From Promethearchaeota archaeon (GTDB lineage Archaea > Asgardarchaeota > Hermodarchaeia > Hermodarchaeales > Hermodarchaeaceae), in NCBI GenBank assembly GCA_048938295.1, contig JBHLMI010000003.1:91437-123436 (forward strand): a DNA stretch of 32,000 nt, read 5' to 3'. The notes below the pieces were generated by a model. It was not told the DNA's origin, made no database searches, and worked only from the letters and a program-made list of their open reading frames with translations. This document shows positions 4,416 through 32,000 of the stretch, one piece after another (the stretch's first letter is position 1; each line of letters starts with the position of its first letter). A program made the position numbers and the translations under genes.

Positions 4416-4419
4416 AGGA

Positions 4420-4475
4420 TATCCCTCACGGAAAAGTGGTATGAAATATTATTGAATAGGTTTCATAAAAACCTA
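4420..4475 (-). promoter_or_regulatory. Putative promoter of the second LVIVD gene, with an inverted repeat over the TATA-like box
   Basis: TAGGTTT-CATAA-AAACCTA (4457-4475) is a perfect 7-bp inverted repeat overlapping minus-strand TTTTTATG (4464-4471). Leader TTTTCCG-TGAG-GGGATA at 4420-4436. Confidence 0.5.
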
Positions 4476-4532
4476 CGCTGGAGGCTTTTCCCTTGCTAAC
4501 TCATCAAATGAGAAAAGCCAATTTGTATGGCG

Positions 4533-5075: not shown

Positions 5076-5170
5076 AATTTGACATCCTACCCTCGATTGG
5101 TAGCCTGCAAGCCGACTGATTCTTGGAGATTCTCGAATTTAAACCCTTTGATATCTTCAAGTATCTATTC

Positions 5171-7692: not shown

Positions 7693-7803
7693 ACACCTTC
7701 AACTAAAACAGACTGAGAGTGTAGGCTCTGTTACCTTTGCCCAAATAAGCCTTATGCCAATTAAATGAAGAACCAAATGTCTTGATGAGAAATACAGGTT
7801 GAC

Positions 7804-8877: not shown

Positions 8878-8913
8878 TACGCCCAGTAAAAAACACGGGG
8901 AGTTGTATCAGCT

Positions 8914-9981: not shown

Positions 9982-10114
9982 TGAAAACAGCTCTCAAATT
10001 TGAGGCTAGCGTCCAATCTGCCCATATTCTAACCTAAATAGTTATCCCAGCTAAGAAAAACCGAAGAATGTTCCTAGTAACCTTTTTAGAAGATAACAAA
10101 GATGACACCACCAT

Positions 10115-10864
10115 ATGCCTCCAAGATATGTTGTGATTCCTGCGGCTGGTAAAGGAAGACGTATTCGACCCTATTCTGAAAAAGTGCCAAAACCCATGAT
10201 CCAGGTCTTTAACCGCCCGATTCTTGCCCATGTTATCGACCGTTGTAAGGATGCTGGAATCACGAATATCATCTTAGTCGTTAACCCCGAATCCAATGCT
10301 GTGGAAAACTACTTCGGGGACGGAAGTGAGTTCGGAGTCTCGATCGAGTACGTGAGGCAACCCAAACCTGAAGGTATTGGGCACGCCGTTGGTTTAACTG
10401 AAGGGATTGTTGAAATCCCCTTTGCGGTGTACTTGGGGGATGAACTGTATATCGATTCAGATCATCGCGGGTTTATCCGATCATTCGACGATACCGGATT
10501 TGCAGCCTCGATTGGGATCATGCGGGTCGAGGATGAGAATCTGATTCGCAAGAATTATTCTGTTGAAATAGATCTAGAAACCCATATCATCCAACATTTA
10601 GTCGAGAAACCCGTCGAATTGACCAACAATATCCTCGGGTGTGGCTCTTACATCTTCAATGAAACCGTGTTCGAAGCGATCCGTCACACTCCACGTTCGA
10701 AGAAGAATGAAATTGAAATAACCGATACCCTCAACACTCTTCGGGAATTGGGGTACGTTGTCGGTGGGTATTTTCTTGGCGGTCACTACCTTAACGTGAC
10801 ATATCCGGCAGACATTGTTGAAGCAGAAAAACTACTCAGCCGAGACCAAGACCGGATTTTATAG
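10115..10864 (+). CDS. Sugar-phosphate nucleotidyltransferase (RmlA/GraD-like)
   Basis: IPAAGKGRRIRPYSEKVPKPM signature; EYVRQPKPEGIGHAV; YLGD; LVEKP; EITDTL. Confidence 0.92.
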   Translation: MPPRYVVIPAAGKGRRIRPYSEKVPKPMIQVFNRPILAHVIDRCKDAGITNIILVVNPESNAVENYFGDGSEFGVSIEYVRQPKPEGIGHAVGLTEGIVEIPFAVYLGDELYIDSDHRGFIRSFDDTGFAASIGIMRVEDENLIRKNYSVEIDLETHIIQHLVEKPVELTNNILGCGSYIFNETVFEAIRHTPRSKKNEIEITDTLNTLRELGYVVGGYFLGGHYLNVTYPADIVEAEKLLSRDQDRIL

Positions 10865-11557
10865 ATTCAAAATGACCTTGATCATTTGAAGGCCATTTCG
10901 GAAAGCTTTTGCTTTGGAGGTTGTGATTTTTGCCTCGCCTACACGGGTCAAGTAATGGACGGGAATTTCCTTCATCTTCCCACCGTACCGAAGGACTTTC
11001 ACAATCATTTGTGGTGAAAGTGATGCCCCTTCAGCATCTAATTCTGGAAGAATCGCTTCCAACATTTCACGTCGAATCACACGAAGCGTGCACCCGACAT
11101 CAGTTAGTGGGGTATACCCGTGAAGTAGCCCAAGTAGCTTAGCCACTGCCATATTCCCGACGACCAAAAATAGCCCCATATTAGCCCCTTCCTCAAGATA
11201 AGGAGTTGCTGTCCGAGTACCAACCGCAAAGTGGCGTGTTCGGACTTCCCGTAATAATCGAAGGACATCGAATCCACGGAAGGTTTGATCTGCTTCGGTG
11301 ATGATTATAAAATCATAGTCACGGTCAAGAGCTTCACGCAATCCACGGCGAATTGCTGCTCCATACCCTTGGATGGGTTCAGGAATAACTGTGGCACCAG
11401 CAGCTTTGGCAACTTTGGCTGTGCTATCAGTCGAGTTGTTATCGATGACAATGACATCATCAACTTCTTTGGTCTTGAAGTCTTTAATTGTGGCAGCGAT
11501 CGGCTTTTCCTCGTTCCATGCAGGGATGACGACGCACACACGCTTTCCAGCGTACAT
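10859..11557 (-). CDS. GT2 glycosyltransferase, DPM1-like (polyprenol-phosphate sugar synthase type)
   Basis: VVIPAWNEE, VIDNNSTD, QGYGAA, TEADQT (DxD variant), LTDVGC, EIPVHYLTRVGEAK. SD GGTGAG upstream. Confidence 0.9.
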   Translation of the reverse strand: MYAGKRVCVVIPAWNEEKPIAATIKDFKTKEVDDVIVIDNNSTDSTAKVAKAAGATVIPEPIQGYGAAIRRGLREALDRDYDFIIITEADQTFRGFDVLRLLREVRTRHFAVGTRTATPYLEEGANMGLFLVVGNMAVAKLLGLLHGYTPLTDVGCTLRVIRREMLEAILPELDAEGASLSPQMIVKVLRYGGKMKEIPVHYLTRVGEAKITTSKAKAFRNGLQMIKVILNL

Positions 11558-11653
11558 AGCAACTCACCAGTAGTAAACGTTCTTAGAATATAGCCTTTCA
11601 TACACTAGGCTTCCTATAAAAGAATTAAAACTCAGAGACGGGAATTACACCAT

Positions 11654-12220
11654 TTACACTTTTAGCGAATAAGCTGGCTTAATAACACCTTCATCGGTTG
11701 CTTGAAGCATTTTCTCTGCTAGAAACTCGAAGAGAGTAGTGACATTCACGCCAGTTCGTGCACTAACAGGCATATAAGCACGAATCCCATAATTTTCACA
11801 GAAGGTCCTGATTTCGGTTTCCGAAGGTCCACCTTCCATATCCGCTTTTGCGCCGACAAGGATGATTGGAATCCCATTGGTGCTATTATGAATAACATCC
11901 ATCCAGAACTCCAGTTGAAGAAAGGTGGAAAAGCGAGTAAGGTCAAAGACAACAATAGCTCCATGTGCACCCAAACAAAAAATCGGCATCAATTCGCGGA
12001 AGCGTTCCTCTCCACCGAAATCCCAAATTGATAGCCCCACTTTTTGGTTTTTGATCTCAATATCCTGATAAGCAAACTCAGATCCCACAGTCATCACTGG
12101 AGACGAGCTATCTTCAAAGAGGTAACGCCGGATGATACTGGTCTTCCCCACTCCTCCTTCACCTGCAACAATGACTTTGAAGATTGGAGTCTGAGATTTA
12201 ATCACAGCTGATTGGACCAC
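11654..12220 (-). CDS. Rab-like small GTPase
   Basis: G1 GEGGVGKT, G2 TVG, G3 WDFGGEERF, G4 AKAD, G5 SARTG. RabF-like segments VGSEF, RFRELM, FCLGA and VVFDLT. Confidence 0.92.
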   Translation of the reverse strand: MVQSAVIKSQTPIFKVIVAGEGGVGKTSIIRRYLFEDSSSPVMTVGSEFAYQDIEIKNQKVGLSIWDFGGEERFRELMPIFCLGAHGAIVVFDLTRFSTFLQLEFWMDVIHNSTNGIPIILVGAKADMEGGPSETEIRTFCENYGIRAYMPVSARTGVNVTTLFEFLAEKMLQATDEGVIKPAYSLKV

Positions 12221-12461
12221 AGGCTCGGAACTACCATTGATTTGTTGATTCGTAGCCAGTGTTTACACCACTTCGGGAGCCATTTATGGCTTAGCCACTC
12301 TCTGAGCGGTTGCCACACCTTTCAAGTCAATTACAGGAGACTTGATTTTTATACTATCGGGGTTCTTCGACCGATTATCGAGTTCTTTGGATTTTTCGCA
12401 ACTACTTTAGGTGAAAAGAACTGATTATTCGTAATTCACATTTTCTGGTGAGTGTCTCACG

Positions 12462-13616
12462 ATGACTGATTCGGTTGCTGTATTTTATGATGAACGGTTC
12501 ATGAAATACGATTTGGGACCACATCATCCGCTCCATCAGAACCGAATCTTGTTGCATCATGAGTTGAGTCGAGTGTTAGGACTATTCTCGAGTAAGGGAG
12601 TGAGTCTTCCTAAGTTCCAACCAGCTACGGATGAACAACTCCGCTTCGTCCATACCCAAACATACATTGATCAAGTCCGAAATTTGAGTCAGCGTAGCGG
12701 GTATTCATCGTTGGATATGGGTGATACCGTGGCTTTTCCCGGTGCATATGATATTACTCGCCTAATGGTGGGTGCGACGTTGGCAGGTGTGGATGCTGTG
12801 ATGAGGGGAAAGGCGCATCACTCTTGGAATTCAAGTGGTGGTCTCCACCATGCTCATGCTGACCGGGCTGCAGGATTTTGTATCTTCAACGATGTAGCAA
12901 TCGCCTGCCATTACCTGAAACAAAAATATAAACAGAAGCGCATCATGTACCTGGATATTGACGTTCACCACGCTGATGGGGTCGAAGAGCAGTTTTACCG
13001 TGATCCTGAGGTACTCACGCTTTCAATCCATCAGACAGGTCGGACCCTGTTTCCCGGAACCGGTTACACTCATGATTTTGGGGATGGCGAAGGAAAAGGG
13101 TATGCAGTGAACCTGCCATTACCACCATATACTCAGGACCAACAATACCTTGATGCCTTTGAGGCTATTGTTCCCCCGATTATAGAAAATTATAAACCTC
13201 AAGTCATTGTGATGCAAAGCGGCGTAGATACCCATTTCCAAGATCAACTTGGAAACTTACTTTTAACGACCCATGCATTTGACCAAATCAGTCAAAGAGT
13301 ACATGAACTCGCACACAAACATTCTAGAGGACGGTTGATTGCGGTTGGTGGAGGTGGTTATTCGTACTACTCGGTTCCGCGGTGCTGGACTATTATTCTG
13401 GCCCGATATATGGGAGTTGATGTCGATAATAACCTCCCAGGGGAGTGGAGAGAGTTCTTCAAAAGTATTACTGGATTGGAGGCTCCTAGGTTCCTTCATG
13501 ATAAGGAGGTGCCTTCCTTATCAGAGCTTGATCAGGCACGGGTTGGCCGGATAGTTAATGAAAGTGTATCACAAGTTCAGGATATGGTTTTCCCACTGCT
13601 TGGTATTTCGAAATGA
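12462..13616 (+). CDS. acuC: Acetoin utilization protein AcuC / histone deacetylase family Zn-dependent deacylase
   Basis: GPHHP, GGLHHA, GFCIFND, YLDIDVHHADG, SIHQ..LFPGTG, VNLPLPP, SGVDTH..D.LG, GGGGY. Confidence 0.92.
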   Translation: MTDSVAVFYDERFMKYDLGPHHPLHQNRILLHHELSRVLGLFSSKGVSLPKFQPATDEQLRFVHTQTYIDQVRNLSQRSGYSSLDMGDTVAFPGAYDITRLMVGATLAGVDAVMRGKAHHSWNSSGGLHHAHADRAAGFCIFNDVAIACHYLKQKYKQKRIMYLDIDVHHADGVEEQFYRDPEVLTLSIHQTGRTLFPGTGYTHDFGDGEGKGYAVNLPLPPYTQDQQYLDAFEAIVPPIIENYKPQVIVMQSGVDTHFQDQLGNLLLTTHAFDQISQRVHELAHKHSRGRLIAVGGGGYSYYSVPRCWTIILARYMGVDVDNNLPGEWREFFKSITGLEAPRFLHDKEVPSLSELDQARVGRIVNESVSQVQDMVFPLLGISK

Positions 13617-13719
13617 ATACAGCTTCCAGAAGCGCTATCCTTCTGCTACGATAAGTTTCCTCGATTTCCCTGAATCATAATCACTTCGGGAGCTTACTAA
13701 AAAAGTCTAACCTGACATT

Positions 13720-14256
13720 CTACAAATGTTCTTTCTGGAGTGAGGAAATCACAGAATCTAAATATTTAGCCACTTCTTGGCTTTCCTTTGCTTTTTCTTC
13801 AAGTTGTTGTATCAGGTCAATAGCCGCGCGTTTTCGGTCCAGGTCATTGGGAATACCACGAAGCCGTTGAGATAGTATTAGAAGCTGGTGGATTTCCGGA
13901 TAACTCCGTTGAATGACTCCTTCAATTGTGCGTGGCTGCTGTGAACCCGGAACCACTCGGACAATTCGAATGCCTTGTGGAGTGATTTGCAGAGAGACCC
14001 GTATACTTTTCGCGAGTCGATAGTATTTACGAGGTGGTCCGCGGATGCTTTCGTCTTCATAGGTTTCTAGGAATCCGCGTTCGATGAGTTCCTGTAGGTG
14101 GCGGAGAATTGCCTGTTGGTGGGCGGCTAGTTCTCGGCTGAGCTGACCCAGAAACATCGGTTCTAGGGAGATGCGTCGAAGAATTTCGAATCGGGTGGGA
14201 TTGCCGAGGAGCCAAAAGAGGTGGATAGACTCATCGTTGGAATTGGGTTGAGACAT
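13720..14256 (-). CDS. phr: ArsR-type wHTH transcription regulator, Phr (archaeal heat-shock regulator)-like
   Basis: LGNPTRFEIL...LSRELAAHQQAILRHL..L.E.G..E....RGPPRKYY matches my recollection of the Pyrococcus Phr N-domain. It has a C-terminal coiled coil and is divergent from hsp20. Confidence 0.75.
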   Translation of the reverse strand: MSQPNSNDESIHLFWLLGNPTRFEILRRISLEPMFLGQLSRELAAHQQAILRHLQELIERGFLETYEDESIRGPPRKYYRLAKSIRVSLQITPQGIRIVRVVPGSQQPRTIEGVIQRSYPEIHQLLILSQRLRGIPNDLDRKRAAIDLIQQLEEKAKESQEVAKYLDSVISSLQKEHL

Positions 14257-14274
14257 CGGGATCGTGTCCGTAGG

Positions 14275-14298
14275 GGTTAGTCACCATGTGTTAGTGAC
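14275..14298. promoter_or_regulatory. Putative Phr operator 1 (over the predicted phr transcription start)
   Basis: GGTTAGTCACCATGTGTTAGTGAC is 17/24 identical to operator 2 and lies ~25 bp downstream of minus-strand TAAATA (14309-14314). Confidence 0.6.
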
Positions 14299-14330
14299 AG
14301 GATGAGAGTATTTAGTCTTGTGGTCATGTG

Positions 14331-14344
14331 GAAAGGTTTAAAAG
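14331..14344 (+). promoter_or_regulatory. BRE/TATA box of hsp20
   Basis: GAAAGG followed by TTTAAAAG (14337-14344), ~75 bp upstream of the ATG at 14420. Confidence 0.6.
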
Positions 14345-14362
14345 GAAGTATTACTCACAAAC

Positions 14363-14386
14363 TATTAGTCACAATATGTGAGTAAA
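14363..14386. promoter_or_regulatory. Putative Phr operator 2 (over the predicted hsp20 transcription start)
   Basis: TATTAGTCAC-AATAT-GTGAGTAAA, an imperfect palindrome (TTAGTCAC versus reverse complement TTACTCAC). An extra half-site TTACTCAC lies at 14351-14358. Confidence 0.7.
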
Positions 14387-14419
14387 TAGATGCGAATAAC
14401 TACAAGGAGACCCACTGCT

Positions 14420-15061
14420 ATGAGTTTCTTTGATGACAATGACGATTTTGATGAGCTCTTCAAGCGCCAAATGCAGGCTTTCCGCCGTATGTTCAATGAC
14501 CTGCACAAATTCGAAAGTGCACCTTCCCCACGAGTCGAAGACCATGATGGGGCTCGAACTATGCAATTTGGACCCTTTGTCTATGGGCGAACCACTTACA
14601 TGGGACCCGACGGGAAGATGCATACACAAGAATGGAGCAATCTTCCTCCCGAGGCACAGAAAGAATTCGAAGAAAAGCTGCACACACGAGGCCTTCCCTT
14701 TCAATTTCCTCCACAACCTCAAGAACGGCGTCCCTCGCCGATTCCAGATCCCTTAACCCCGGATCGCCCCTTTCCAATTCCACAAACTCAGGTTGAACTC
14801 AAGCCAGATGATTATCCCATCGATATTCTTGATACTGAAGATGGGTATACTATCATATTCGATACTCCTGCCACGAGCGCCCACGATGTTAGGGTTGATG
14901 TGAATGGGCAGCACCTACAGTTGTGGGCTCGAGGCGATTTGTTCCGGGAATTAGAACTCCCTGTTCCAGTTCAGCTTATCTCGCTCCAATTCCGTAATGG
15001 AATCGTGGAAGTGCAGCTAAGATCCAAGCCAGAGGAAGAGCCCAAAGCCTCCGGGGAATAG
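14420..15061 (+). CDS. hsp20: Archaeal small heat shock protein (Hsp20 family)
   Basis: GPFVYG...GPDGK...EW.N N-terminal motif and a C-terminal alpha-crystallin-like region (FRELELP...FRNGIVEVQL). SD AAGGAGA precedes ATG 14420, so I prefer this start to the track's 14390. Confidence 0.85.
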   Translation: MSFFDDNDDFDELFKRQMQAFRRMFNDLHKFESAPSPRVEDHDGARTMQFGPFVYGRTTYMGPDGKMHTQEWSNLPPEAQKEFEEKLHTRGLPFQFPPQPQERRPSPIPDPLTPDRPFPIPQTQVELKPDDYPIDILDTEDGYTIIFDTPATSAHDVRVDVNGQHLQLWARGDLFRELELPVPVQLISLQFRNGIVEVQLRSKPEEEPKASGE

Positions 15062-15087
15062 ACCGAACAGACGGCGTGAGGTCGAAT

Positions 15088-15109
15088 GGACGGGTTGCCA
15101 GACCCGTCC
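15088..15109. terminator. GC-rich hairpin downstream of hsp20 (possible terminator or stability element)
   Basis: GGACGGGT-TGCCAG-ACCCGTCC, a perfect 8-bp stem followed by a pyrimidine-rich tract (ttccccactatttttcc). Confidence 0.4.
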
Positions 15110-15193
15110 TTCCCCACTATTTTTCCATGCCAACGTATTGTCGGAATGATAGCCCTTCCATCAGTTTTTTAGGGTACACCTTCGCTGTGCCTT

Positions 15194-15799
15194 TTGAGGT
15201 TATTTGGCGTGGCTCATGAGGACTATGCCGAGGAATTAATGAGATTACGAGCCCGATATGGCATACCCCGAAGAGTTAATTTTGAGGTTGAGATGCTACC
15301 CGATGAATTTGCACTCGTTCAACGATCACAGAAGCGGGGGCGACAGCACGATGTCACTGTCTTTATTCAGTATCAGGGCAAGTTTGTTGTAATCGAAAAA
15401 CACGCGTATGCTAAGACCGGAATAGTTCGAGCCCCTTCTGGCGGTGCACGACCGTCAGAAAGCCTGATTTCTGCAGCCCAACGGGAGGCTAGCGAAGAAA
15501 CTGGATTTGATATCGAAATTGATCGGTTTGTATTAGAAGCCCACGTGCTGCTAAAAAGCGGAAGCCACCCTGCGGTGCCTTGGGTCTCCTATGTATTCTT
15601 GGCTCATGTTGTAGGAGGACAACTCGGTGCAAAGGATTTGGAAGAGATTTCAGATGTCCAACTCCGTTCGCGAGAAGAATTACTCAAAGATGTGCGCCCT
15701 CTTATGCTCGCTTCTGGACTTGGTGGATTCGAGTATCGGGCAAAAATGACTGATGCCTTCTTCGAGGAACTGGATGCTCTGAATATTACGCTAAAATAA
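15194..15799 (+). CDS. NUDIX hydrolase
   Basis: Complete Nudix box GGARPSESLISAAQREASEETGF. The TTG start is uncertain. Confidence 0.85.
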   Translation: MRLFGVAHEDYAEELMRLRARYGIPRRVNFEVEMLPDEFALVQRSQKRGRQHDVTVFIQYQGKFVVIEKHAYAKTGIVRAPSGGARPSESLISAAQREASEETGFDIEIDRFVLEAHVLLKSGSHPAVPWVSYVFLAHVVGGQLGAKDLEEISDVQLRSREELLKDVRPLMLASGLGGFEYRAKMTDAFFEELDALNITLK

Positions 15800-15806
15800 A
15801 CCAGGA

Positions 15807-17129
15807 TTAAAGTGGAGCACCGCAGTGTACGCAAAATCGTGCATCTGAGGCTGTTACGCGTCCACAGTTGGCACATATTTTTCCAGCTTCTGCATCCTGT
15901 TGTCTGGATTTTGGAGTCTCAGTCACAGATTCTGGCTCTTCAGGCGCCTCCGTTGACTCGATAACTTCGACTTCCTCATCACTTATAGAAGGTGAAAGTT
16001 TGGAGTCAGCAACAGTCGTTTCTTTGACTTCGAACCGGGTAATTGGTCCATTCCGCATTGCTGATTCTTTTTTCAGAATGTGCTCGCAAGCAAGAAGAGC
16101 ATAATGGAGACGGTCAGCTTTTTCAGTAAGGGTAGTCTTCCTTTTCTCATTCACCTCGGCATCTTCGTCTCCAATGAGAAGTCGGGCGTTTAAGGTATCG
16201 AGTTCTTCTTTCACTTCAGCATGATCAAGTTGGACCTGGGCCTGATATCCTTGGAGTTGAAGAACACCATTCTTGATCTGTTCATCCATACCTTCAAGTT
16301 TTTCTTCATACTCTTTGGTCAAACGGTCATAGACTCGTTCGCTGACTTCGGCTTTTTTATGGAGGTCTTCTAGTCGTTCTAACTCTCCACGTTCATTGAT
16401 ATAGCTGTCGATGAGTTCTTCTAATTCGAAATCGCTATCAGCAGCTGCTTGACTTAGTTCCTCAAGGAGTTTATCGGATACTGAACCATTGTTAGCATAT
16501 TCTTCTTCCAACACTAGCTGACGGCCTCGTGCCATTAGACTTGCCAGCACTTTTGTGGGAACTGTGATTGGTTCAACCGTCGAAATCCTCGCCGTTGCAG
16601 TGGCAGGATAGGGTGTTTCATCCGCTACTTGTTCTGGAGTCTTTGCCGTTCCAGGGATATCGCTACCACAATAGATACAGAACTTGGAACCAGGTCTTGA
16701 ATTGCGTCCGCATGAAGGGCAGGTGACTACAGAAGTCGTTTTGACTGAAGCTGATTTCTGAGTTTCAAGTTCCTGTGTTTCTGGAGCTGGAGTTGATAGG
16801 ACTTGCCCACAATTAATACAATAATTTGAAGATTCGGGATTATTGCTAAACCCACAAAGAGTACAGACATTCGATGCTGAAGTCGAGGTTATTGGGGTAG
16901 CTGTTGGTTCAACTCGATTGCCACATTTGGTACAGAACTTCATACCTTTCTTGAGTGTCGTTCCGCAGTTGCTACACTTCAGCAGGTCTGGTTTCGCTTG
17001 AGGTGTAGGCACTGGAGGGGGTGCGGCTCTACCTCCCCTTGTGGGGGTGCCACAGATGGTGCAGAATTTAGCTGATTGTTTGAGGGTTGCTCCACAGTGG
17101 CTGCATTTCTGAGTCATTGTCATCCTCAC
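15807..17129 (-). CDS. Zinc-ribbon protein (five CxxC-CxxC ribbons) with a central CdvA-like coiled coil
   Basis: Four N-terminal ribbons and one C-terminal ribbon. Central segment ERLEDLHKKAEVSERVYDRLTKEYEEKL...ELDTLNARLLIGD. The likely start is ATG 17117 or 17123 after SD GGTGAGG. Confidence 0.8.
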   Translation of the reverse strand: MRMTMTQKCSHCGATLKQSAKFCTICGTPTRGGRAAPPPVPTPQAKPDLLKCSNCGTTLKKGMKFCTKCGNRVEPTATPITSTSASNVCTLCGFSNNPESSNYCINCGQVLSTPAPETQELETQKSASVKTTSVVTCPSCGRNSRPGSKFCIYCGSDIPGTAKTPEQVADETPYPATATARISTVEPITVPTKVLASLMARGRQLVLEEEYANNGSVSDKLLEELSQAAADSDFELEELIDSYINERGELERLEDLHKKAEVSERVYDRLTKEYEEKLEGMDEQIKNGVLQLQGYQAQVQLDHAEVKEELDTLNARLLIGDEDAEVNEKRKTTLTEKADRLHYALLACEHILKKESAMRNGPITRFEVKETTVADSKLSPSISDEEVEVIESTEAPEEPESVTETPKSRQQDAEAGKICANCGRVTASDARFCVHCGAPL

Positions 17130-17254
17130 CTAGATGTAATGTTGTTGAGAGCTAATGAATCCACCCTTATTTTGTTTTGCACTGGTCTAGGAGAAAGGCG
17201 TGTATTGTTGTGTACAGTAGAAAAGGATGCCCAAAATCATGCTTTCGAGTGTAG

Positions 17255-18211
17255 CTATTTCTTTGCTTTACTCTTTACTTTTGATTTCTTCTTTTCAGGT
17301 GTGACATCAGCTGACTCCGTGGTGATTCGGAAAATGTCAATGAGTTCGCTGACATCAGCTTCTGCGATGGCATCTCGTAGACCATGGGAGTCCTCTTCGC
17401 TTTTCTTGAGAAACTCTGTGGCGAGGACTCGACCGTCTTCAACCAAAATGCGGGGTGTATAGTGGCCTCCGAAGAAAGGGCCATCAGGAAGGGTGCGGGT
17501 TCTTTCAAGTTGAGAAGTTGTCTCGGTTTTTCCTAGGAATGTAACGGTTCGATCAACACTAGTGAATACCTCTTGCCCAATGATTACCAACTCCCGGCAA
17601 TAACCTGGGGGAGGTGAAGTATTGGAAACACGTCCCACAATATCATCTTTGGCAGGAACAGGAATCATGCTTGAAATAACGGGACGTTGTGGCCATTGTT
17701 GCTCTGCGCCATTGTATTCGGTGCCTAATTGCGTCGATGCTACTGGTTCCGGTTTGGTTTCGGGAACTTTTACTGGTGTAGCTTCTACTGGTCGAGGTTT
17801 CGATGCAGTGGCAACCGGTTTGGGTGGAGGCGCATCTGGTTGAATTTCAATCGTTTTATCGGGAAAATCGACTTTGACTTCAACTTCTCTTTTGGGTGCA
17901 GGAGCCTTCGGTTTGATCCCGAGAAGGGAGAGAAAAGCATCGGGTTCTTCGCCCCCATCTATTGATAGGACTTTATATACTAATCCGCATTGGCTGCGAA
18001 CAGCTTGGCCTTGCCGGGCCGCAATGAATTTCTTGCGAACACCAGCTTCAGCGCCTTTCCAGAGCCAGATTTTGCGGTCATCGTTGTCAACTATGATCAA
18101 TACTCGGTCAGCGTTTAATTCTGATTGAAGCTTGTCTGGAACAGATAGCTCCATGAGTTCCCCGGTTTCAACGACATCGTATACTTGTAGGTGGGCGGAC
18201 AGTACCCTCAC
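17255..18211 (-). CDS. Asgard-type single gelsolin-domain protein with a Pro-rich linker and second domain (1DGelX-like)
   Basis: VLIIVDNDDRKIWLWKGAEAGVRKKFIAAR...IDGGEEPDAF is a gelsolin core. A PAPK/PPPKP linker leads to PPGYCRELVIIG...TPRILVEDGRVLATEFLKK. Confidence 0.8.
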   Translation of the reverse strand: MRVLSAHLQVYDVVETGELMELSVPDKLQSELNADRVLIIVDNDDRKIWLWKGAEAGVRKKFIAARQGQAVRSQCGLVYKVLSIDGGEEPDAFLSLLGIKPKAPAPKREVEVKVDFPDKTIEIQPDAPPPKPVATASKPRPVEATPVKVPETKPEPVASTQLGTEYNGAEQQWPQRPVISSMIPVPAKDDIVGRVSNTSPPPGYCRELVIIGQEVFTSVDRTVTFLGKTETTSQLERTRTLPDGPFFGGHYTPRILVEDGRVLATEFLKKSEEDSHGLRDAIAEADVSELIDIFRITTESADVTPEKKKSKVKSKAKK

Positions 18212-18417: not shown

Positions 18418-20448
18418 GTGTTTCACACCAAATTTCGCGATGTTATTCTTGAAGAGCTCTCAGGAACCATCGCCAAGGATTATGTCTCGGAGATTATTCG
18501 ATTTCATCGTATCCAAGCATCACCTGGTTTTCACGATGCTATCTATTATGTGAAGAGCATTATTGACCAATTCCCTGGAATCCGCAGCGATGTTGAAGTA
18601 TACCCAGCAGATGGAAAAACAAAAAGCTGGCAATTCGTCGCACCCCTGGGATGGCGTGTAGCAGATGGTGAACTCCATCTGGTGAGCCCAAAGCAAGAAC
18701 TCCTCGCTCGTTTTTCTGAAACCCCAGTCAGTGTTATTGCCCACAGTCAGCCAGTCGACATCGTTGCCCCTCTCATCTACCTTGAAGAAGGCACTGCAGA
18801 GCAACACTATCGACGCATTGATGTCAAAGGCAAAATCGTCCTGACATCAGGCAAGGCGCAGCAAGTCCAACAAGAAGCGGTGATGAAACGAGGAGCGATA
18901 GGGTCAATCCATTTTCCTCCCTTAGAAACACGGACTAAACAACCGAACCTTATCATGTATCAAGGAATATGGCCCAATGCTGCAGAAAAAGACAAGATCG
19001 GATTTGCCTTCTCAGTCTCAGGACAAACAGGTTCCAGACTTCGACGATTGATTCAAACAGAGCCTGAAGTACTCGTTCATGCCAAAGTAGATGCTGAACT
19101 CTTTGAAGGTGAACAGCGTGTTCTCACAGCCGTCATCGAAGGGACAGAATTCCTCCGAGAAGAAATCGCCCTCATTGCTCATCTTTGTCATCCTCGACCT
19201 GGAGCAAATGACAATGCCAGTGGCAGCGCCCTCCTGATAGAGCTTGCCCGTGTTATCAGCACCCTCATCAAGGAAGGAAAGCTTCCGGCACCACTGCGCA
19301 CCATTCGATTCATTTGGGTACCCGAATTTTATGGTACTGCCGCTTACCTAAATGCACACCCAGAATTTGGTCCACGAACAATAAGCGCTATCAACTGTGA
19401 TATGGTGGGTGCCGACCCCTCACTTGTTGGCGGCTCATTAAATTTACACCGAACGCCAGATTCCCTTCCAAGTTTTGTAAATGACCTCCTCGAATATCAT
19501 CTATCAGCTGCAGCTAAAGAACCACGACTGATAGCTCCTAATGGTCAGAATCGACCGTTCCATTATGAAATTAGGAAGTTTGACTGGCGTAGCGACCACT
19601 TCATTTTCGTGGATCCAACTTTCAGTGTTCCTTGCCCTATGCTAAACCATTGGCCTGACGCCTTCTATCATAGTAACCTGGATACGCTGGATAAGATTGA
19701 CACGACCCAGTTGCAACGAGTAGGTTTTGCAGTGATCATGACCATCCTAACCCAAGCCTATGCTGAAGCTGATGATGCCATGTTCTTAGCAACACAAGTC
19801 CATGCCAATGCGCACACACGAATCACGCAGACAACCCAACGATACGTGCATGAAGCAATCGACGCTATCGCGAAAACCGAACGGGGCGCTCTCCTTACCC
19901 GTATTCTACGGAAAGCCATGGAAAGCATTCGGCATATCACTCGAAGAGAAAGCGTCGCCTTGCAAAGTGTCAAAGTCCTCAGCCCCCATGATTCCGAATT
20001 GCACAACTTCATTGATTTGATGTTGGAAGATTTAGTTCAAGAACGCCAAGAAGAGGTGCGCAAGCTGCGTCAAGTTGAAGACCTACTGTCCCGTTCAATT
20101 GGCTATAGCCCTCTTAAGCGATTGGTGATTCGGAAAAAGGAAAGCAAGGCCAAGACCCTTGTACCTCGTCGCAAGTTCCAGGGACCCCTCTATTTTAGAG
20201 AGCTCTTGCGATATACGAAGACCGAGGACACAATGTGGCTTCGGCACCAGCAGGAAGACCACCCTTTCTTTGTGGAAGTCCTGTTGGAACTCACCAACTT
20301 CATGGATGGCCATCGAAACCTCTATGAAATTTTGACCGCCCTTGAAGCAGAGTTTGGTGAAAGGGCAAATATTGACATCCTTGATCGGCTCATCACCATC
20401 CTTCAAGATCTAGATCTGGTCGAGATAGAGAAGGTTAAGTCCATGTAA
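18418..20448 (+). CDS. M28-family metallopeptidase (DUF4910-like) with PA domain and C-terminal extension
   Basis: AHLCHPRPGANDNASG, WVPEFYGT, INCDMVG, SDH and FYHS motifs. SD AGGAGG before the GTG. Confidence 0.88.
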   Translation: MFHTKFRDVILEELSGTIAKDYVSEIIRFHRIQASPGFHDAIYYVKSIIDQFPGIRSDVEVYPADGKTKSWQFVAPLGWRVADGELHLVSPKQELLARFSETPVSVIAHSQPVDIVAPLIYLEEGTAEQHYRRIDVKGKIVLTSGKAQQVQQEAVMKRGAIGSIHFPPLETRTKQPNLIMYQGIWPNAAEKDKIGFAFSVSGQTGSRLRRLIQTEPEVLVHAKVDAELFEGEQRVLTAVIEGTEFLREEIALIAHLCHPRPGANDNASGSALLIELARVISTLIKEGKLPAPLRTIRFIWVPEFYGTAAYLNAHPEFGPRTISAINCDMVGADPSLVGGSLNLHRTPDSLPSFVNDLLEYHLSAAAKEPRLIAPNGQNRPFHYEIRKFDWRSDHFIFVDPTFSVPCPMLNHWPDAFYHSNLDTLDKIDTTQLQRVGFAVIMTILTQAYAEADDAMFLATQVHANAHTRITQTTQRYVHEAIDAIAKTERGALLTRILRKAMESIRHITRRESVALQSVKVLSPHDSELHNFIDLMLEDLVQERQEEVRKLRQVEDLLSRSIGYSPLKRLVIRKKESKAKTLVPRRKFQGPLYFRELLRYTKTEDTMWLRHQQEDHPFFVEVLLELTNFMDGHRNLYEILTALEAEFGERANIDILDRLITILQDLDLVEIEKVKSM

Positions 20449-24968: not shown

Positions 24969-25576
24969 TTACAGGTTGGGCATAATTTCCTGGGCAATTG
25001 TTTTAATATTATATTTCATCTTTGAAGGGTGTACCAGCTGTAGAGCACGATGAGTGGCTCCTGCTTTAGCATACTCGTTGATACGGGCTAGACAGTCTGA
25101 GGGAGCTCCAAGGATGGCTCGAGACTCATCTAGTGGTTTCCCCCACTTAAGCAACTGCTGCTTAGCCTCTTGCAAAGAGGTCCCAACTTGAAAAAACACT
25201 GGCAATAATTTCCAACTCACTTAGTCGTCACCCCTGGAAATTCATCATTTCATCCAAAAGCCGTAAACGCCGACTAGCCCAGTTATGGAAAGGGCAAACG
25301 GCATCCAACCCTGCCCAAAGGTTACTATCAATTCAAGCACCCGAATCGAACCTCCCCCAATAAGAACGGTGGATGTGGCTGTTGCATAGGTTTGGGTTCA
25401 CAGGTTACATCGTCTACCTGATAGTACGTCCCCTGAAATGTAATCACGTTTTCAGTCCAGTAACTTCGAAGCAGTTGGAGACCTTCTTCGGTCTGTGAAA
25501 GACGCTTCGAATGGGGCAAAAACAGTACATCTATCCAGTCAAATTCCTCCCGATGCCATCCTGCCCCCACACCAAA
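24969..25576 (-). pseudogene. LLM-class flavin/F420-dependent oxidoreductase remnant
   Basis: GVGAGWHREEF...EEGL...TFQGTYY...CEPKPMQQPHPP / LIGGGS...GWMPFA / RLRLLDEMM..QG*RLSELEIIA / ...GAPSDCLARINEYAKAGATH. Frameshifts near 25365, 25272 and 25191-25196; in-frame TGA at 25228-25230; the N-terminal ~100 aa are missing. Confidence 0.82.
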
Positions 25577-25629
25577 TGAACACGGTGCGAAGTTATATCA
25601 GCCTTCTCCCTGAGCCGGCAGAAACCCCG

Positions 25630-26310
25630 TCACTCGGAGTTTTGCAGCTTCTTCCCTTCAGAACCTACACCTCGTCGGGAAGCCAGATGGCGCAGCAAAC
25701 TGACCGTGGTTCGTAATTTCGATGTCTCCTTCAGAATCAGGGTCTCAGCAGCCTCATTATTCGAGACCATATTCGCTCTAGTAAGCACCTTCTGCATCCA
25801 AGCCAGCTGTTCGGTATCAAAGGCCGAGTTAGTAATGGTCTTGGAGGCGACATCGATGGTCATCAGCTGCTTGGTCGAATCAGGAAGCCCAGTATATTCT
25901 TCCTTGGTCACCATATACAAACAGGCCCCGATGTCCACACTATCCGGTAACACCCGATCCATGAAATCACGGATGCCCACCGTAACCACCAAGGACCCAA
26001 TGAGCACAACGGTTTGCTCGCTAACCCCCGCTGTCAACAGCGCAGATAGAACATCAATTCCAAGATTATTGTAAGCAGTCCGCACCGTAAATTTCACAGG
26101 TCGAAAATCCTCGGGAACAGGTTCTTCTTCAGTAGGATAGCCTAAAATGAGGCCGGCACGTGAGAATTCGACCCGGAACTCATGCTCGCAGATTTTTCCA
26201 GCAACAACCCGGCCTGTAATGGTGTTACCTTGAACCTTGTCCCAAGCCCCTTCTGGCACCTCTAGTGTACCTTCTGTGTGGCAAATGGGACAGATGACTT
26301 TTAATTTCAC
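25630..26310 (-). CDS. Hypothetical protein with an N-terminal CxxC...CxH zinc-binding domain
   Basis: CPICHTEG...KICEHEFRV, followed by an alpha/beta region (LSALLTAGVSEQTVVLIGS). Confidence 0.75.
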   Translation of the reverse strand: MKLKVICPICHTEGTLEVPEGAWDKVQGNTITGRVVAGKICEHEFRVEFSRAGLILGYPTEEEPVPEDFRPVKFTVRTAYNNLGIDVLSALLTAGVSEQTVVLIGSLVVTVGIRDFMDRVLPDSVDIGACLYMVTKEEYTGLPDSTKQLMTIDVASKTITNSAFDTEQLAWMQKVLTRANMVSNNEAAETLILKETSKLRTTVSLLRHLASRRGVGSEGKKLQNSE

Positions 26311-26820: not shown

Positions 26821-29800
26821 ATGAATCGTCGAATCCTGATCTGTGTGACATTTTTCGCGTTATTCTTATTTTCCTCTAATAGTGTGGCTGTACCAATTTC
26901 GGACACTTTTGGGACTTCAGCATTTGGAAAGGCAGGTGAAGGAGTCGAAGCGAATTATGTTCCTTCCCCATCAATGCCTCCACCGTTACCTGAGGGACCC
27001 ATCTATTCAGATGGTGAATTCCAGTATGCAGGACTGGGAGCCCCACTTACCACAAAGGAGTATGCTGAAGGATCCAACCGCTCCTTGCAGATTTCTAATT
27101 TTAATTATCTTGACAATAGATATGGCGAAGTCCGATTACCAAGACAGTGGACAGGTTATCGATTAGAAGCTGATGTATACAACCTATATGACCAACCCTA
27201 TTTTGTTCAAGGCATTCGTGAAAATGGAACCTTTGAATCAATCGCTGAATGGGACACTCAAAATAATGGCATGGGAGACAATACTTCGAACCCCTATTAT
27301 GGAACCAGATGGGGTTCGGCTTATGGTTATTCAGGAAATGGTGTACAAACTTGGGTTGAATGGAATACGGGATGGACCTGGAATGTGAATTCCTATGTGG
27401 TTTGGCGAAACAATATTACCATTCAACGTGACGACCCTGTCTATGCCAAACTTACCTTCCGCGTGCGAGTAAATCTTATCGCAGGTGCTAGTGAGGCGCG
27501 AGGTCGGATGGTCATTTATGCTGAAATCGCAGGTATTGTCTATCGACTACTACTGGATGAACATTGTCCAAATAATGGACAATGGTACCAATTGAGCATC
27601 TCAGTACCAGCTGATGACTTACTCACCTGGTCTGTACCTGATATCATCCAGGTTCGCTTAGGTTTGGGATTCACAGGTTTGCAAACATCTTGGGATTATG
27701 AGTATTGGGGACTGAATTTTGATGATGTAACCCTTGAAGTGCGAGGCCTCGTTAACCCCAATGATACCACCTGGCTGGATTTAGTAATGAATTCCACAAT
27801 TGCACAAACGGCAGGATATGGATATGGATCTTATTCACTTGTTGGAACCTGGCCCAACCCTACCACAGAGCATAAGCGAGTCGTGGCGCATTGGCAAGCC
27901 ACCGATACGGATGCTCGACTTGTTCAATTCACGTATAACCTTACCTTATACATTACCCGAGATTACACAACCGAACAACAAACCGGACCAGATGGTTCAG
28001 CTTTTACGGCAAAGAATGGCCCAACTGCGTATTGGACCACTTGGATGTATGCCTATCAGCCATACTTCTTTTCACAATACAACCTTTCCATGACCAGACC
28101 CACCACGGAAACTTGGACGATTTCTAATGTTACAGACCCACTCTTCACAGATCGAACAAGTGCAGTTTCAGCAAATTCAACCCACTTTCTTCTTTCAAGT
28201 TCTGCGATCAATGACATCTATGGCTGGTGGAACTTCACGTTCTCCTCGGTGAATCGCATCACATCCATTAGTGGTCTTGCTTCAAATTATTACATCGGAG
28301 ATATTCTTTCCATCGATGTCAATCATGATACGGTGACCTCTGGCCAATGCAACATCACTATCTACGATTCCAATCACCAAGTCGTCCATGAGGAGTCTAA
28401 ATCGTTGACGGGGTCCACCGTCGTCTCTTTCAGCAAACTCTTTGACAGTGGCGACACGTTCGCCGCTGGGCTGTACACCATCTGTGCCACTTACGATAAT
28501 GGTGCCACGGGGTCCATGACCAGTGCTGGATTCGTTTCGTCAACCTTCAAGATCATTCATACCACCGACATGACCATCGAAGGAGGGGCGTTAACTAAAA
28601 TCGTAGACTACTCGACTTTAACCACCTTCTTCATACGCCTCACCTATGACGATTTGGACAAAACCGTCAACCCGTGGGTTGCCAACACCACTGGAACTGT
28701 CCGAATTAACGGCACCGTCGATGGCAACTTCATAGAATTCCAACAATTCGGAAACCTCTACCAAGTCGAAATCGACAACGACCTGATGATTCCCGGGAAT
28801 TATCCGTTCGTCATTCAAGCAGATGACCCCTACCACGATTATACGACAGATTCAATTACTCTGCAGGTTCGTAGCGATGCTTCTCTCAGTTCACCTCAAT
28901 CCCCAGGTTTTACCATTGCCTATGACGAATCCTTTACAGCTGCAATATGGTATGAAGATGCAGCTCACAATGGAATTGAAAACGCGCTCATCACCACTAA
29001 CTGGCCAGGAAGTCCCGTTTCCACCCTTAACGGATCAGGGTGGTATAATATCACTTATGATACAAATGACCTAGGCTTTCCGCAAACCTTTGTATTGAAT
29101 GTCCAAGCAGAAAGGAATTACTATACACCACGGAGCATTGTCCTCACTATTGTTGTGAGAGAAATTGCGACCTCCATTACCTATTCGACACCGGGGTCAG
29201 TACCCTACGGCGAGGACATAACTATTCCGTTTAATTTCACCGTAAATGATCCAGGGCATAACCAGGATGAAGATGGCATCGGTTCGGTCCAAAAAAGCGA
29301 TCTTACACTCACTCTAGACGGTTCAGGCCTTAACCCAGCCGATTTCACATTCGCCCAAGGTCCTCAACCGGGCATGTATTCCATCACCATTCTCTTTGCG
29401 AGTACTAAAATCAGCTCAATCAAAAGTTATACCCTTCGATTGGCTGTTGCGGCGCCATCAGATGAATATGCCGATGCGTCAACCTCTATTGGGTTCAGTG
29501 TGCGGCGTTTACGATCTTCTTTGACCTACGACGCTCCGGCCGCAGAACCATGGGGCAATGACATGGTAATTGTCTTCTATTATACAGTAGACGACCCTAT
29601 TAGCGGAAGCGATGGAAACGCCATCACTACATTAGGTCTCTCAACCATAAGCTGTCAATTGAATGGCTCGGTAGTGAGTAGTTTTGGTTGGACCCAGCCG
29701 ATTAGCGGTCAATATGTGCTTACAATTTATTCCTCTGATATCACCCAGGTCATCAAATTCCGCCTTTACATCACAGCCGATAATAGCACAGACGTTTATG

Positions 29801-32000
29801 AGGGAGCAGCGCGGACACTACATTTCGTTATCCGTGCCCATCAAACCCAAGCCATTGTCGATCCGCCCGCTGAAACTGTATTAGGACAAGATACACCGCT
29901 TTCGGTTCAATGGGTAGATCTAGATGCTGGAGGCGATGTGCTAGGAAACCTTACAAGCATTGTTGTGTCGAACTGTCCGGTTGGTGGCGATCAAACTTTT
30001 GGCATACTAGCTTTCACTTTGGACACTGATAGTTGGCCTGTTGGCACACATGTCCTCACCTTGACTGTTAATCCTGATACATCACCCGGTTGGTACATAG
30101 GTGATAGCGCCACCGTCAATGTTGTAATCCGTATTCATTACACCGGAGTTACGATTCAACCACCTAACCCCACACCCCATGGGTTCAATACCCAAATCAC
30201 CGTAATCTGGACTGATTTAGATATCGGTGGAAATGTTCCTGGAGGCGAACTCTTTCAAGTAATTGTCTCTGATTGCCCGGTTGGCGGTGACCAGACTTTC
30301 ACCAGCCTCGCCTTCACCTTGGACACCACAAGCTGGACTATCAGCAGCGGCTATACCCTAAATGTCACCGTCTATGCAACCACCGGTCCACGGTCCTATA
30401 GCGATGCATGGGCAGTAGTCTCGGTAGTTATCCGCATCCACCGTGTTGAAGTCGTAATCCCGACCCCGTCACCTACCCCATGGGGCTTCAATACACCCAT
30501 GAGTGTAACATGGCGGGATCTTGATACAGGTACCACCATTTCAGGAGCTAATCTAGATAATATTACAGTCACAGATTGTCCCGTAGGTGGGGATCAAACC
30601 TTCACCAGCCTCACTTTTGCTCTCATCACCATCACCTGGAATACTGGCCAGTACGCTCTTAATGTCACCATATACCCTGAAATGAGCCCCCAAGAATACG
30701 AAATCATAAGCTACCAAGTAACTGTGACGATCCGAGCCCATTATGTCAGTGTCACCGTCGATCCACCAGCTCAGACCCCTTGGGGATCTGACACAGACCT
30801 GGTTGTCACTTGGCGAGATGTGGATACGAATTCACTCATTTTAGAAGCAAACCTAGATAATGTGACAGTAACGGGTGGCTTTGGGGGCGATCAGACCTTC
30901 AGTAGCCTAGCATTTACACTCGATACAGCTAGCTGGAGCGTTAATCCCTGGAGCCTCACTGTGTGGGTGTATGGAACAGCTGATTTTATGCCTGGGAGTG
31001 GTCCAGTCACTGTGACCATTCGTGGGCACCAGACCCAGACCGTCGTGACTCCTCCACAGCAAACACCCTTCGGATCTGATACCTTAATCACCGTTAGTTG
31101 GCTTGACCTTGACCAGGGAAGTAATCCTGTGCCGGGTGGTAACCTTCAACAAATTGTCGTTACTAATTGTCCGGTCGGCGGTGACCAAACCTTTGCCAGC
31201 CTCGCCTTCACCCTCGTGACTGATACCTGGAATGTGGGAACCTATACGTTAACTGTAACCACTACATCATCATCAAGTTCCTATCTGGGAAGTAGTTCAA
31301 ATACAACAGTTGTAATCCGGATCCATTATACTGGCGTCACAGTACAACCGCCTGACCCCAGACCCTGGGGCTTTAACACACCAATTACCGTTACCTGGAC
31401 AGATTTGGATCTGGGCGCTGCGGTGCCTGGAGGTAATCTGTTCCAAGTGATTGTTTCGGATTGCCCGGTTGGAGGCGATCAGATTTTCACCAGCCTTTCT
31501 TTCATATTAGACACGACGAGTTGGGACATTAGCACTGGTTATACTCTGAATGTAACCTTATATGCAGCTACTGGTCCACGGTCCTACAGCGATTCCTGGG
31601 GCTCTGTTTCCGTGGTCATTCGGATTCATCGTGTTGAAGTCGTCATCCCCACCCCTCCACCCACCCCATGGGGTTTTGACATCACCGGTATGACTGTGAC
31701 TTGGAAGGATTTGGATGCTGGGAGCACTATCGCGGGTACGAATCTGGATAACATCACCGTTGCGGATTGTCCCGTTGGGGGGGATCAGATATTCTCGACT
31801 CTGACTTTTACCCTGATTGCTAGCACTTGGAGCCAAGGTGCCTATACTCTGAATGTGACCGTGTATCCCGATATGAGTCCCCAGCTGTATGGCATAACGA
31901 GTTATCAGGTCACCGTGACCATTCGAGCCCATTATGTCAGTGTCACCGTCGATCCACCAGCTCAGACCCCTTGGGGATCTGACACAGACCTGGTTGTCAC
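26821..32000 (+). CDS. Giant secreted/cell-surface protein with tandem Ig-like repeats (3' end outside the window)
   Basis: Hand translation from ATG 26821 shows no stop to the window end (1726 codons). Signal peptide MNRRILICVTFFALFLFSSNSVA; Thr/Ser/Trp-rich beta composition; about 28 N-x-S/T sequons by hand count. Confidence 0.93.
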   Translation, partial: MNRRILICVTFFALFLFSSNSVAVPISDTFGTSAFGKAGEGVEANYVPSPSMPPPLPEGPIYSDGEFQYAGLGAPLTTKEYAEGSNRSLQISNFNYLDNRYGEVRLPRQWTGYRLEADVYNLYDQPYFVQGIRENGTFESIAEWDTQNNGMGDNTSNPYYGTRWGSAYGYSGNGVQTWVEWNTGWTWNVNSYVVWRNNITIQRDDPVYAKLTFRVRVNLIAGASEARGRMVIYAEIAGIVYRLLLDEHCPNNGQWYQLSISVPADDLLTWSVPDIIQVRLGLGFTGLQTSWDYEYWGLNFDDVTLEVRGLVNPNDTTWLDLVMNSTIAQTAGYGYGSYSLVGTWPNPTTEHKRVVAHWQATDTDARLVQFTYNLTLYITRDYTTEQQTGPDGSAFTAKNGPTAYWTTWMYAYQPYFFSQYNLSMTRPTTETWTISNVTDPLFTDRTSAVSANSTHFLLSSSAINDIYGWWNFTFSSVNRITSISGLASNYYIGDILSIDVNHDTVTSGQCNITIYDSNHQVVHEESKSLTGSTVVSFSKLFDSGDTFAAGLYTICATYDNGATGSMTSAGFVSSTFKIIHTTDMTIEGGALTKIVDYSTLTTFFIRLTYDDLDKTVNPWVANTTGTVRINGTVDGNFIEFQQFGNLYQVEIDNDLMIPGNYPFVIQADDPYHDYTTDSITLQVRSDASLSSPQSPGFTIAYDESFTAAIWYEDAAHNGIENALITTNWPGSPVSTLNGSGWYNITYDTNDLGFPQTFVLNVQAERNYYTPRSIVLTIVVREIATSITYSTPGSVPYGEDITIPFNFTVNDPGHNQDEDGIGSVQKSDLTLTLDGSGLNPADFTFAQGPQPGMYSITILFASTKISSIKSYTLRLAVAAPSDEYADASTSIGFSVRRLRSSLTYDAPAAEPWGNDMVIVFYYTVDDPISGSDGNAITTLGLSTISCQLNGSVVSSFGWTQPISGQYVLTIYSSDITQVIKFRLYITADNSTDVYEGAARTLHFVIRAHQTQAIVDPPAETVLGQDTPLSVQWVDLDAGGDVLGNLTSIVVSNCPVGGDQTFGILAFTLDTDSWPVGTHVLTLTVNPDTSPGWYIGDSATVNVVIRIHYTGVTIQPPNPTPHGFNTQITVIWTDLDIGGNVPGGELFQVIVSDCPVGGDQTFTSLAFTLDTTSWTISSGYTLNVTVYATTGPRSYSDAWAVVSVVIRIHRVEVVIPTPSPTPWGFNTPMSVTWRDLDTGTTISGANLDNITVTDCPVGGDQTFTSLTFALITITWNTGQYALNVTIYPEMSPQEYEIISYQVTVTIRAHYVSVTVDPPAQTPWGSDTDLVVTWRDVDTNSLILEANLDNVTVTGGFGGDQTFSSLAFTLDTASWSVNPWSLTVWVYGTADFMPGSGPVTVTIRGHQTQTVVTPPQQTPFGSDTLITVSWLDLDQGSNPVPGGNLQQIVVTNCPVGGDQTFASLAFTLVTDTWNVGTYTLTVTTTSSSSSYLGSSSNTTVVIRIHYTGVTVQPPDPRPWGFNTPITVTWTDLDLGAAVPGGNLFQVIVSDCPVGGDQIFTSLSFILDTTSWDISTGYTLNVTLYAATGPRSYSDSWGSVSVVIRIHRVEVVIPTPPPTPWGFDITGMTVTWKDLDAGSTIAGTNLDNITVADCPVGGDQIFSTLTFTLIASTWSQGAYTLNVTVYPDMSPQLYGITSYQVTVTIRAHYVSVTVDPPAQTPWGSDTDLVV
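29830..32000 (+). repeat. Intragenic tandem repeat of 96-101 codon units with a four-unit higher-order period (1188-1191 bp)
   Basis: Units start at the I of IRxH: 29830, 30127, 30430, 30730, 31018, 31315, 31618, 31921. Consensus IRxH...V.PP..TPWG.(D/N)T...V.W.DLD.G......NL..I.V.(D/N)CPVGGDQTF.SL.FTL.T..W..G.Y.L.VT. Confidence 0.95.

Follow-up and report, generated by a model that had tools for sequence, protein, structure and literature searches.

The 32,000-nucleotide (nt) stretch analysed here as a whole (the window; positions 91,437 to 123,436 of a contig, JBHLMI010000003.1, of a Promethearchaeota archaeon, referred to below as C32) ends in an open reading frame (ORF) of 1726 codons (26821–31998, + strand) that meets no stop before the window end, which is also the end of the contig. 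A first, sequence-only reading of the DNA had reported this frame as an ORF of at least 1726 amino acids (aa) with no stop in the window, and had called it unannotated; the gene is indeed missing from the annotation track, solely through its truncation at the contig end, but a partial product of 1727 aa is already among public proteins (P0003). The frame is orthologous to a 4511-aa frame in a genome of the same genus (G052), and we consider it likely that roughly the initial two fifths of a gene lie in the window, the gene encoding a giant type I membrane protein at the cell surface; its full product, judged from this orthologue, probably measures ~4500 aa. The genome itself is a metagenome-assembled genome (MAG) of 66 contigs and 2.5 Mb, with an estimated contamination of 4.3%.

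From its N-terminus, the encoded protein opens with a Sec-type signal peptide read from the sequence (aa 1–23; 26821–26889, + strand), whose MNRR start, hydrophobic core and SNSVA end are typical of such signals, as had been claimed, and whose counterpart is found at the same N-terminus in the paralogue P0002. It is followed by a Trp/Tyr-rich head (aa 24–500; 26890–28320, +) conserved in 12 relatives, by about five divergent Ig-like domains (aa 501–1005; 28321–29835, +), the last two of which are of the 'TYxxP..PWGxD' type amplified in the relatives P0005 and P0006, and by an array of ~100-aa units of four types, A to D. Sequons for N-glycosylation (N-x-S/T) occur at 1.6 per 100 aa in the giant ORF as opposed to 0.53 in the other ORFs of the window.

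With the residue next to an 'IR' linker taken as the first of each unit, the units start at aa 1006 (HQTQ), 1105 (HYTG), 1206 (HRVE), 1306 (HYVS), 1402, 1501, 1602 and 1703, and unit alignment places A1 at 29836–30132 (aa 1006–1104), B1 at 30133–30435 (aa 1105–1205), C1 at 30436–30735 (aa 1206–1305), D1 at 30736–31023 (aa 1306–1401), A2 at 31024–31320 (aa 1402–1500), B2 at 31321–31623 (aa 1501–1601), C2 at 31624–31926 (aa 1602–1702) and the first 24 codons of D2 at 31927–31998, all on the + strand; D1 is, by alignment and tree, of a derived short type denoted D*. The sequence-only reading had described eight consecutive units, A1 to D2, told apart by these four starting motifs and recurring every 396–397 aa. 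Order, starts and period (396, 396, 396 and 397 aa between same-type units) all hold, but D2 is present only as 24 aa, its evidence being the last 77 nt of the contig, and the block count in this genome is accordingly at least two. Tandem Repeats Finder gave no report, the longest period it handles being 500 nt against ~1190 nt here.

Units of the same type are 57% (A1/A2), 80% (B1/B2), 75% (C1/C2) and 100% (D1/D2, over the 24 aa present) identical, compared with 42–54% across types, and the DNA of block 1 is 71.5% identical to that of block 2 over 871 nt. For the B1/B2 pair the nonsynonymous divergence (dN) is 0.13 and the synonymous divergence (dS) a saturated 2.9 (dN/dS ~0.04); because synonymous sites are saturated while dN is low, the block duplication is old and both copies have been kept by selection. 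The motif CPVGGDQTF is common to the A, B and C units of this gene and absent from single-block paralogues, a sharing that suggests homogenisation within the array. A Cys–Gln thioester at CPVGGDQ was considered and dropped, as the Cys-to-Gln spacing is unlike that of known motifs and unit D has no Cys. The R-x-H of the linker and a loop Asp are invariant, and one may speculate that the linker His and Arg together with the loop Asp form an interdomain site resembling the calcium sites of adhesin extenders. Two antisense ORFs of 124 and 146 aa in the repeat region (31558–31998, − strand) are most likely by-products of the repeat composition and not genes.

Structural modelling places the units in the Ig-like superfold, as had been proposed. 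An AlphaFold2 (AF2) model of one ABCD block (aa 1004–1403, built from a 9-row alignment) has a predicted local distance difference test (pLDDT) score of 92 and consists of four seven-strand sandwiches of ~100 aa each, i.e. with the strand number and size of Ig-like (E-set) domains, and single units superpose on PKD and BIg domains with Z 8–9.2 and a root-mean-square deviation (rmsd) of 2.3–2.7 over 80–89 residues. The closest solved structures to the block model are those of GhpA (9fls_A, E 9e-13), the RTX extender tetra-repeats (6xi1, 6xi3) and the MpIBP repeat (4p99_A, Z 11.2), with further matches to complement MG domains and cadherin ectodomains; the closest predicted structures are archaeal Big_3_5/Big_1/PKD repeat proteins and 'adhesin-like' proteins. 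At the sequence level, none of the named Pfam Ig-like families (Big_3_5, Big_1, PKD, Cadherin, fn3, CARDB) fits consistently across the whole protein and 27 single units, the best result being Big_3_5 at E 0.017 in one of the 27, and scans of P0001, P0002 and the same 27 units bring no family to threshold in units, head or tail, in agreement with the initial impression that the repeat belongs to no named family. Ribophorin_II_2nd (PF23861) scores 24.6 bits over the whole protein against a cut-off of 23.4, yet no single stretch passes and only one of the 27 units responds (E 0.068), which we read as chance. Searches of the block and tail profiles against Protein Data Bank (PDB) sequences gave no meaningful match, and the literature yielded no description of a giant ABCD protein family. 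An RTX or type 1-secreted adhesin was likewise rejected, given the Sec-type signal peptide and the transmembrane (TM) helix and tail in which complete relatives end. The protein joins the known class of giant surface proteins built from Ig-like repeats, but its sequence family is itself undescribed.

The head had been described as Trp/Tyr-rich and taken for a distal adhesion or lectin head. Trp and Tyr together make up 11.5% of aa 24–500, compared with 6.4% in the other ORFs of the window, and alignment of the relatives shows many invariant Trp and Gly residues. Within the head, AF2 modelling and VIA-align comparison delineate a core (aa 125–308; 27193–27744, +) with the β-jelly-roll fold of carbohydrate-binding modules (CBMs) of the CBM4/6/15/16/22-like kind: block-mean pLDDT is 73–91 for model residues 121–280 (~aa 144–303), within the aligned range of model residues 102–285 (aa 125–308), and the core matches 8xmz_B with Z 11.7 and rmsd 2.7 over 127 residues, followed by the CBM structures 4d0q_A (Z 11.5), 1gny_A (Z 11.3), 2zew_A (Z 11.2) and many more at Z 10–11.6. 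A Pfam scan of the whole protein returned no CBM family, the likeness to CBM4/15/16/22-type modules being one of fold only. AlphaFold models of the four-domain block and of the head, both recommended at the outset, thus point to Ig-like units and a CBM-like core, respectively.

The head search retrieved 12 homologues (E 1e-74 or better, 35–83% identical, 2687–4066 aa), whose most specific name is 'hypothetical protein [Promethearchaeota archaeon]', and a profile of the ABCD block, a repeat-based search of the kind suggested earlier, found only 116 cluster representatives in a set of 1.84 billion, with E 1e-30 or better for 45. The genome records with the block are Promethearchaeota and Candidatus (Ca.) Hermodarchaeota MAGs, which bears out the Asgard attribution made from the sequence, and the full-length head occurs in 14 of the 18 other genomes of the window's own family, with partial weak matches only elsewhere in the phylum. 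In G052 (JBHLPR010000006.1, 68,925 bases, isolate H2S.129), the 4511-aa orthologue reads A B C D* four times and then A′ B′ c d, a total of 5 blocks and 20 domains with the last block of ancestral type, and in G114 of the same family (JAEOTB010000054.1, 80,482 bases, Ca. Hermodarchaeota YT1_014) the frame is 7129 aa long and comprises 11 blocks that recur every 402 aa. Central blocks of the latter are 85–90% identical and edge blocks 36–55%, a pattern that unequal crossing-over typically leaves in tandem repeats. Block 1 of the window is closest to block 1 of G052 (73%) and block 2 to block 2 (82%), and because the best matches pair in this way the block order of the two genes is orthologous. 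The order A B C D* A... is found again in P0014 and P0018, two fragments of other assemblies, and recurrence of the same unit order 5 and 11 times in independently assembled relatives shows that the pattern is neither chance nor artefact.

The stalk had been thought to have grown by duplication of a four-domain block. Relatives with 1, 5 and 11 blocks support such growth; however, the block is not a creation of this gene. Eight paralogues (P0002, P0004, P0007, P0010–P0013 and P0015) carry one ABCD block each, in the same order and with types alignable across proteins, and in the unit tree the D* units of amplified blocks separate from ancestral D with support 100/95, just as amplified and ancestral C units form distinct groups. 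ABCD is thus an old ancestral module that was later amplified as a block, the amplified D being the derived short D*. P0002, complete at 2907 aa on contig C64, combines the same signal peptide and head with one ABCD-like block and many further Ig-like domains. P0005 and P0006 lack A–C units and amplify another unit of ~112 aa (TYDP..PWGED..FYYxVND..GGGQYTLTILYSSG), in ~10 and ~15 copies, respectively, apparently also with a higher-order period; different lineages would then have lengthened the stalk with different modules.

The end of the contig is itself a product of the repeat. Its terminal 77 nt (31924–32000) are an exact copy of 30733–30809, at the start of D1, and exactly 77 nt are shared with another place at 80 of the 132 contig ends of the assembly, which identifies these overlaps as k=77 graph junctions. 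The sequence indicates that the assembler met the start of D a second time and then halted. Such k=77 overlaps of contig ends could also serve for scaffolding the bin. Extension of the contig, as had been advised for copy number and anchor, succeeded in part: no contig of the bin continues the array, tblastn of the whole MAG with the array and the paralogue's downstream part finding none with D2, more blocks or the middle of the gene, but the sole match to the missing 3′ part is a tail fragment at the start of C64. There, C64:1–498 encodes the last 165 codons of the family tail on the same strand as P0002 and 237 nt upstream of it, and is 76% identical to the tail of P0014 and 78% to that of the G052 orthologue, as against only 58% to that of P0002. 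On a relative's contig (L004), an array gene, a 232-nt spacer, a 2927-aa P0002-like gene and a coenzyme A (CoA)-ligase gene follow one another in the same order as on C64, with CoA ligases 81% identical between the two, and the array gene of G052, too, has a P0002-like gene (2923 aa) behind it in tandem. We infer that the end of C32 and the start of C64 are the two ends of one gene, with several kb between them unassembled or unbinned.

Complete relatives continue beyond their blocks with ~12 further Ig-like domains and close with a single TM helix, behind which lies a conserved cytoplasmic tail of ~250 aa; helix and tail are present in P0002, P0005, P0006, P0014, G052 and G114, and, judging from these relatives and from C64:1–498, the window's protein probably has the same C-terminus. 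At least six genes of its genome share the TM helix and tail. Among them, three tandem genes on contig C2 (L003, G000:C2:35000–54500; ORFs 2425–6612, 6779–11656 and 11879–18178, + strand; 1395, 1625 and 2099 aa) have differing ectodomains, one with Invasin_D3/Big_1 matches, on the same TM helix, juxtamembrane motif and tail as the giant family. The juxtamembrane motif (R-V-F-S-I-P-W-E-V-R-R-M-R) is common to paralogues with otherwise unrelated ectodomains, and the tail (P0002:2636–2907, alignment A3) contains, on either side of a Pro-rich linker, two copies of a helical motif, 'L-x-K-I-P-G-L-G/S-x-x-E-K-x-x-L' ('IPGLGxxEK' for short), which looks like a helix-hairpin-helix. The protein would accordingly be of type I, TM-anchored with a conserved tail, and hence receptor-like as well as adhesin-like.

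We therefore propose, with reasonable confidence, that the gene encodes a giant type I stalked surface protein with a lectin-like head and a block-amplified stalk, whose function is probably adhesion. In this model, the chain would continue past the contig end through more blocks and ~12 Ig-like domains to a single TM helix and ~250-aa tail; the stalk would keep the lectin-like head far from the membrane, for binding glycans or the surfaces of partner cells; unequal recombination between blocks would shift its reach in four-domain steps, as among relatives with 1, at least 2, 5 and 11 blocks; and the constant tail would couple the protein to some cytoplasmic partner. Tandem Ig/FN3 domains measure about 4 nm each, and by this general yardstick each block would add ~15 nm, and proteins of 5 and 11 blocks would differ by ~90 nm in reach.

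Several observations weigh against this proposal and temper it. The AF2 model of the head has an overall mean pLDDT of 57.8 and is poor outside aa 143–313, and a CBM-like fold is no proof of sugar binding. The several kb that should lie between C32 and C64 are absent from the bin and the join is itself inferred, and the tail gave no Pfam match, no meaningful PDB match by profile and no usable protein-atlas feature match. Furthermore, the head (aa 1–760) shares no more than 38% identity with its counterpart in the G052 orthologue compared with 80% in P0002, the presumed tandem neighbour (26821–29100 of the window against L002:736–3015 on C64), while in G052 the two corresponding genes are 34% identical over the same stretch and cross-genome pairs 37–39%. 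The heads look to have been recently exchanged or converted between the tandem paralogues, and as this head is nearer to P0002 than to G052, the gene is a mosaic whose ligand may differ from that of its orthologues.

One alternative to the proposed adhesin is a passive glycocalyx-like coat or spacer with no specific ligand, in which glycosylated Ig-like rods would stand in place of an S-layer and fix the distance from the surroundings, and block number would set coat thickness only. The high sequon density, the multigene family (TM helix and tail recur in at least six genes of this genome), and the wide variation in length among relatives all suit a coat, but a conserved head with invariant Trp and Gly and a lectin-like fold exceeds the needs of a spacer, and conservation of the tail across paralogues suggests intracellular coupling, so that we consider a mere coat unlikely. 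The same tail raises the question of a signalling receptor, whose head would sense a ligand and whose juxtamembrane segment and tail would relay the signal to the cytoplasm, with adhesion secondary; type I proteins whose ectodomains vary while the TM helix, the juxtamembrane motif and the pair of 'IPGLGxxEK' motifs stay nearly constant are what such a receptor would lead one to expect. Yet the tail contains no enzymatic or known signalling domain that we could find, a rod tens of domains long would relay conformational signals poorly, and the neighbouring genes include no signalling partners, which makes signalling as the primary role very unlikely. Finally, the ending of the contig in a 77-nt repeat junction, within a fragmented MAG of some estimated contamination, could be taken to mean that the second block arose in assembly, for instance as a chimera or through collapse or mis-joining of a repeat, and that the true gene has a single ABCD block. 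Blocks whose DNA is no more than 71.5% identical and whose synonymous sites are saturated can, however, be neither collapsed copies nor strain variants; they pair in order with blocks 1 and 2 of G052; and the order A B C D* A ... recurs in three further assemblies, all of which renders an assembly artefact exceedingly improbable.

The other genes of the window suggest no functional link to the giant gene. They comprise a 440-aa protein with four zinc-ribbon/DZR modules (15807–17129, − strand) and a 676-aa M28-family peptidase (18418–20448, +), neither of them linked in any way that we could find to the giant gene, as well as a luciferase-like fragment and a number of genes without family. In the luciferase-like stretch (24969–26310, −), an 80-aa ORF (25328–25570) matches only positions 104–170 of a 314-position luciferase-like monooxygenase model and is flanked by short ORFs without family; the stretch may be a broken gene.

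Close physical association with other microbes is part of the life of Asgard archaea, whose surface has been proposed as the interface at which the eukaryotic cell arose; to our knowledge, almost none of their surface proteins has been characterised. The giant ABCD family, confined to one Hermodarchaeota-type family and devoid of Pfam domains, offers three defined objects for such work: a lectin-like head, a four-domain stalk module present in 1 to 11 copies in close relatives, and a tail shared by at least six genes. Because the array breaks short-read assemblies, as in the window's genome and in two others (P0014 and G022, each truncated within the array), with fragment P0018 likewise cut at both ends, genes of this type are systematically truncated or lost in MAG annotations. 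What appears new is the four-domain higher-order repeat conserved across genera, the Asgard-restricted distribution and the shared cytoplasmic tail. Taken further by analogy, tandem genes, exchangeable lectin-like heads, stalks reset in length by unequal recombination in four-domain steps and a constant tail tying contacts between cells or with partners to the internal cytoskeleton or membrane machinery would make up an Asgard adhesion-receptor system like the clustered protocadherins, an idea we hold to be distinctly unlikely as it stands; if true, it would mean that the nearest kin of eukaryotes possess a prokaryotic, forerunner-style form of regulated cell contact.

Among known systems, the ABCD model is best matched by the extenders of giant bacterial adhesins, i.e. 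MpIBP region II (4p99), the RTX adhesins of Aeromonas and Marinobacter (6xi1, 6xi3) and Aureispira GhpA (9fls, 9flp), in which long tandem strings of Ig-like sandwiches, ~100 aa each, hold a ligand-binding region at a distance from the cell (Foldseek E 9e-13 to 1e-10; VIA-align Z 10.7–11.8; no sequence similarity). Type 1 secretion exports the RTX adhesins and type 9 secretion GhpA; these bacterial proteins reside in or on the outer membrane and repeat near-identical copies of one domain, whereas the Asgard protein is archaeal, has a Sec signal and, by its relatives, a C-terminal TM helix and tail, and carries four distinct domains per block. Closer in taxonomy are archaeal surface proteins of tandem E-set domains (Big_3_5, Big_1, MG4 and PKD proteins of Methanobacteriota, Thorarchaeota and Bathyarchaeota), matched with Atlas TM-scores of 0.44–0.56 and, in the AlphaFold Database, under the names 'Adhesin-like protein' and 'Ig-like domain repeat protein'; unlike in the Big_3_5/Big_1 proteins, the units here fall below the Pfam Ig-like models, and head, ABCD order and tail are all specific to this lineage.

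Huge archaeal proteins of obscure function with an N-terminal Laminin_G_3 (concanavalin-clan) domain (PMC11573180) share the same layout, an N-terminal jelly-roll lectin-like domain on a very long polypeptide, but the giant Asgard protein has no Laminin_G_3 match in the Pfam scan, and that survey includes neither the ABCD array nor the tail. Metazoan cadherins and clustered protocadherins, finally, are type I proteins with tandem β-sandwich ectodomains, one TM helix and a conserved tail, their tandem genes differing in the ectodomain, and protocadherin ectodomains are among the Foldseek matches of the ABCD model. The Asgard protein differs from them in having no cadherin Pfam match and none of the calcium-binding linker motifs of cadherins, and in a tail encoded by each gene rather than by shared exons; the resemblance is one of analogy only.

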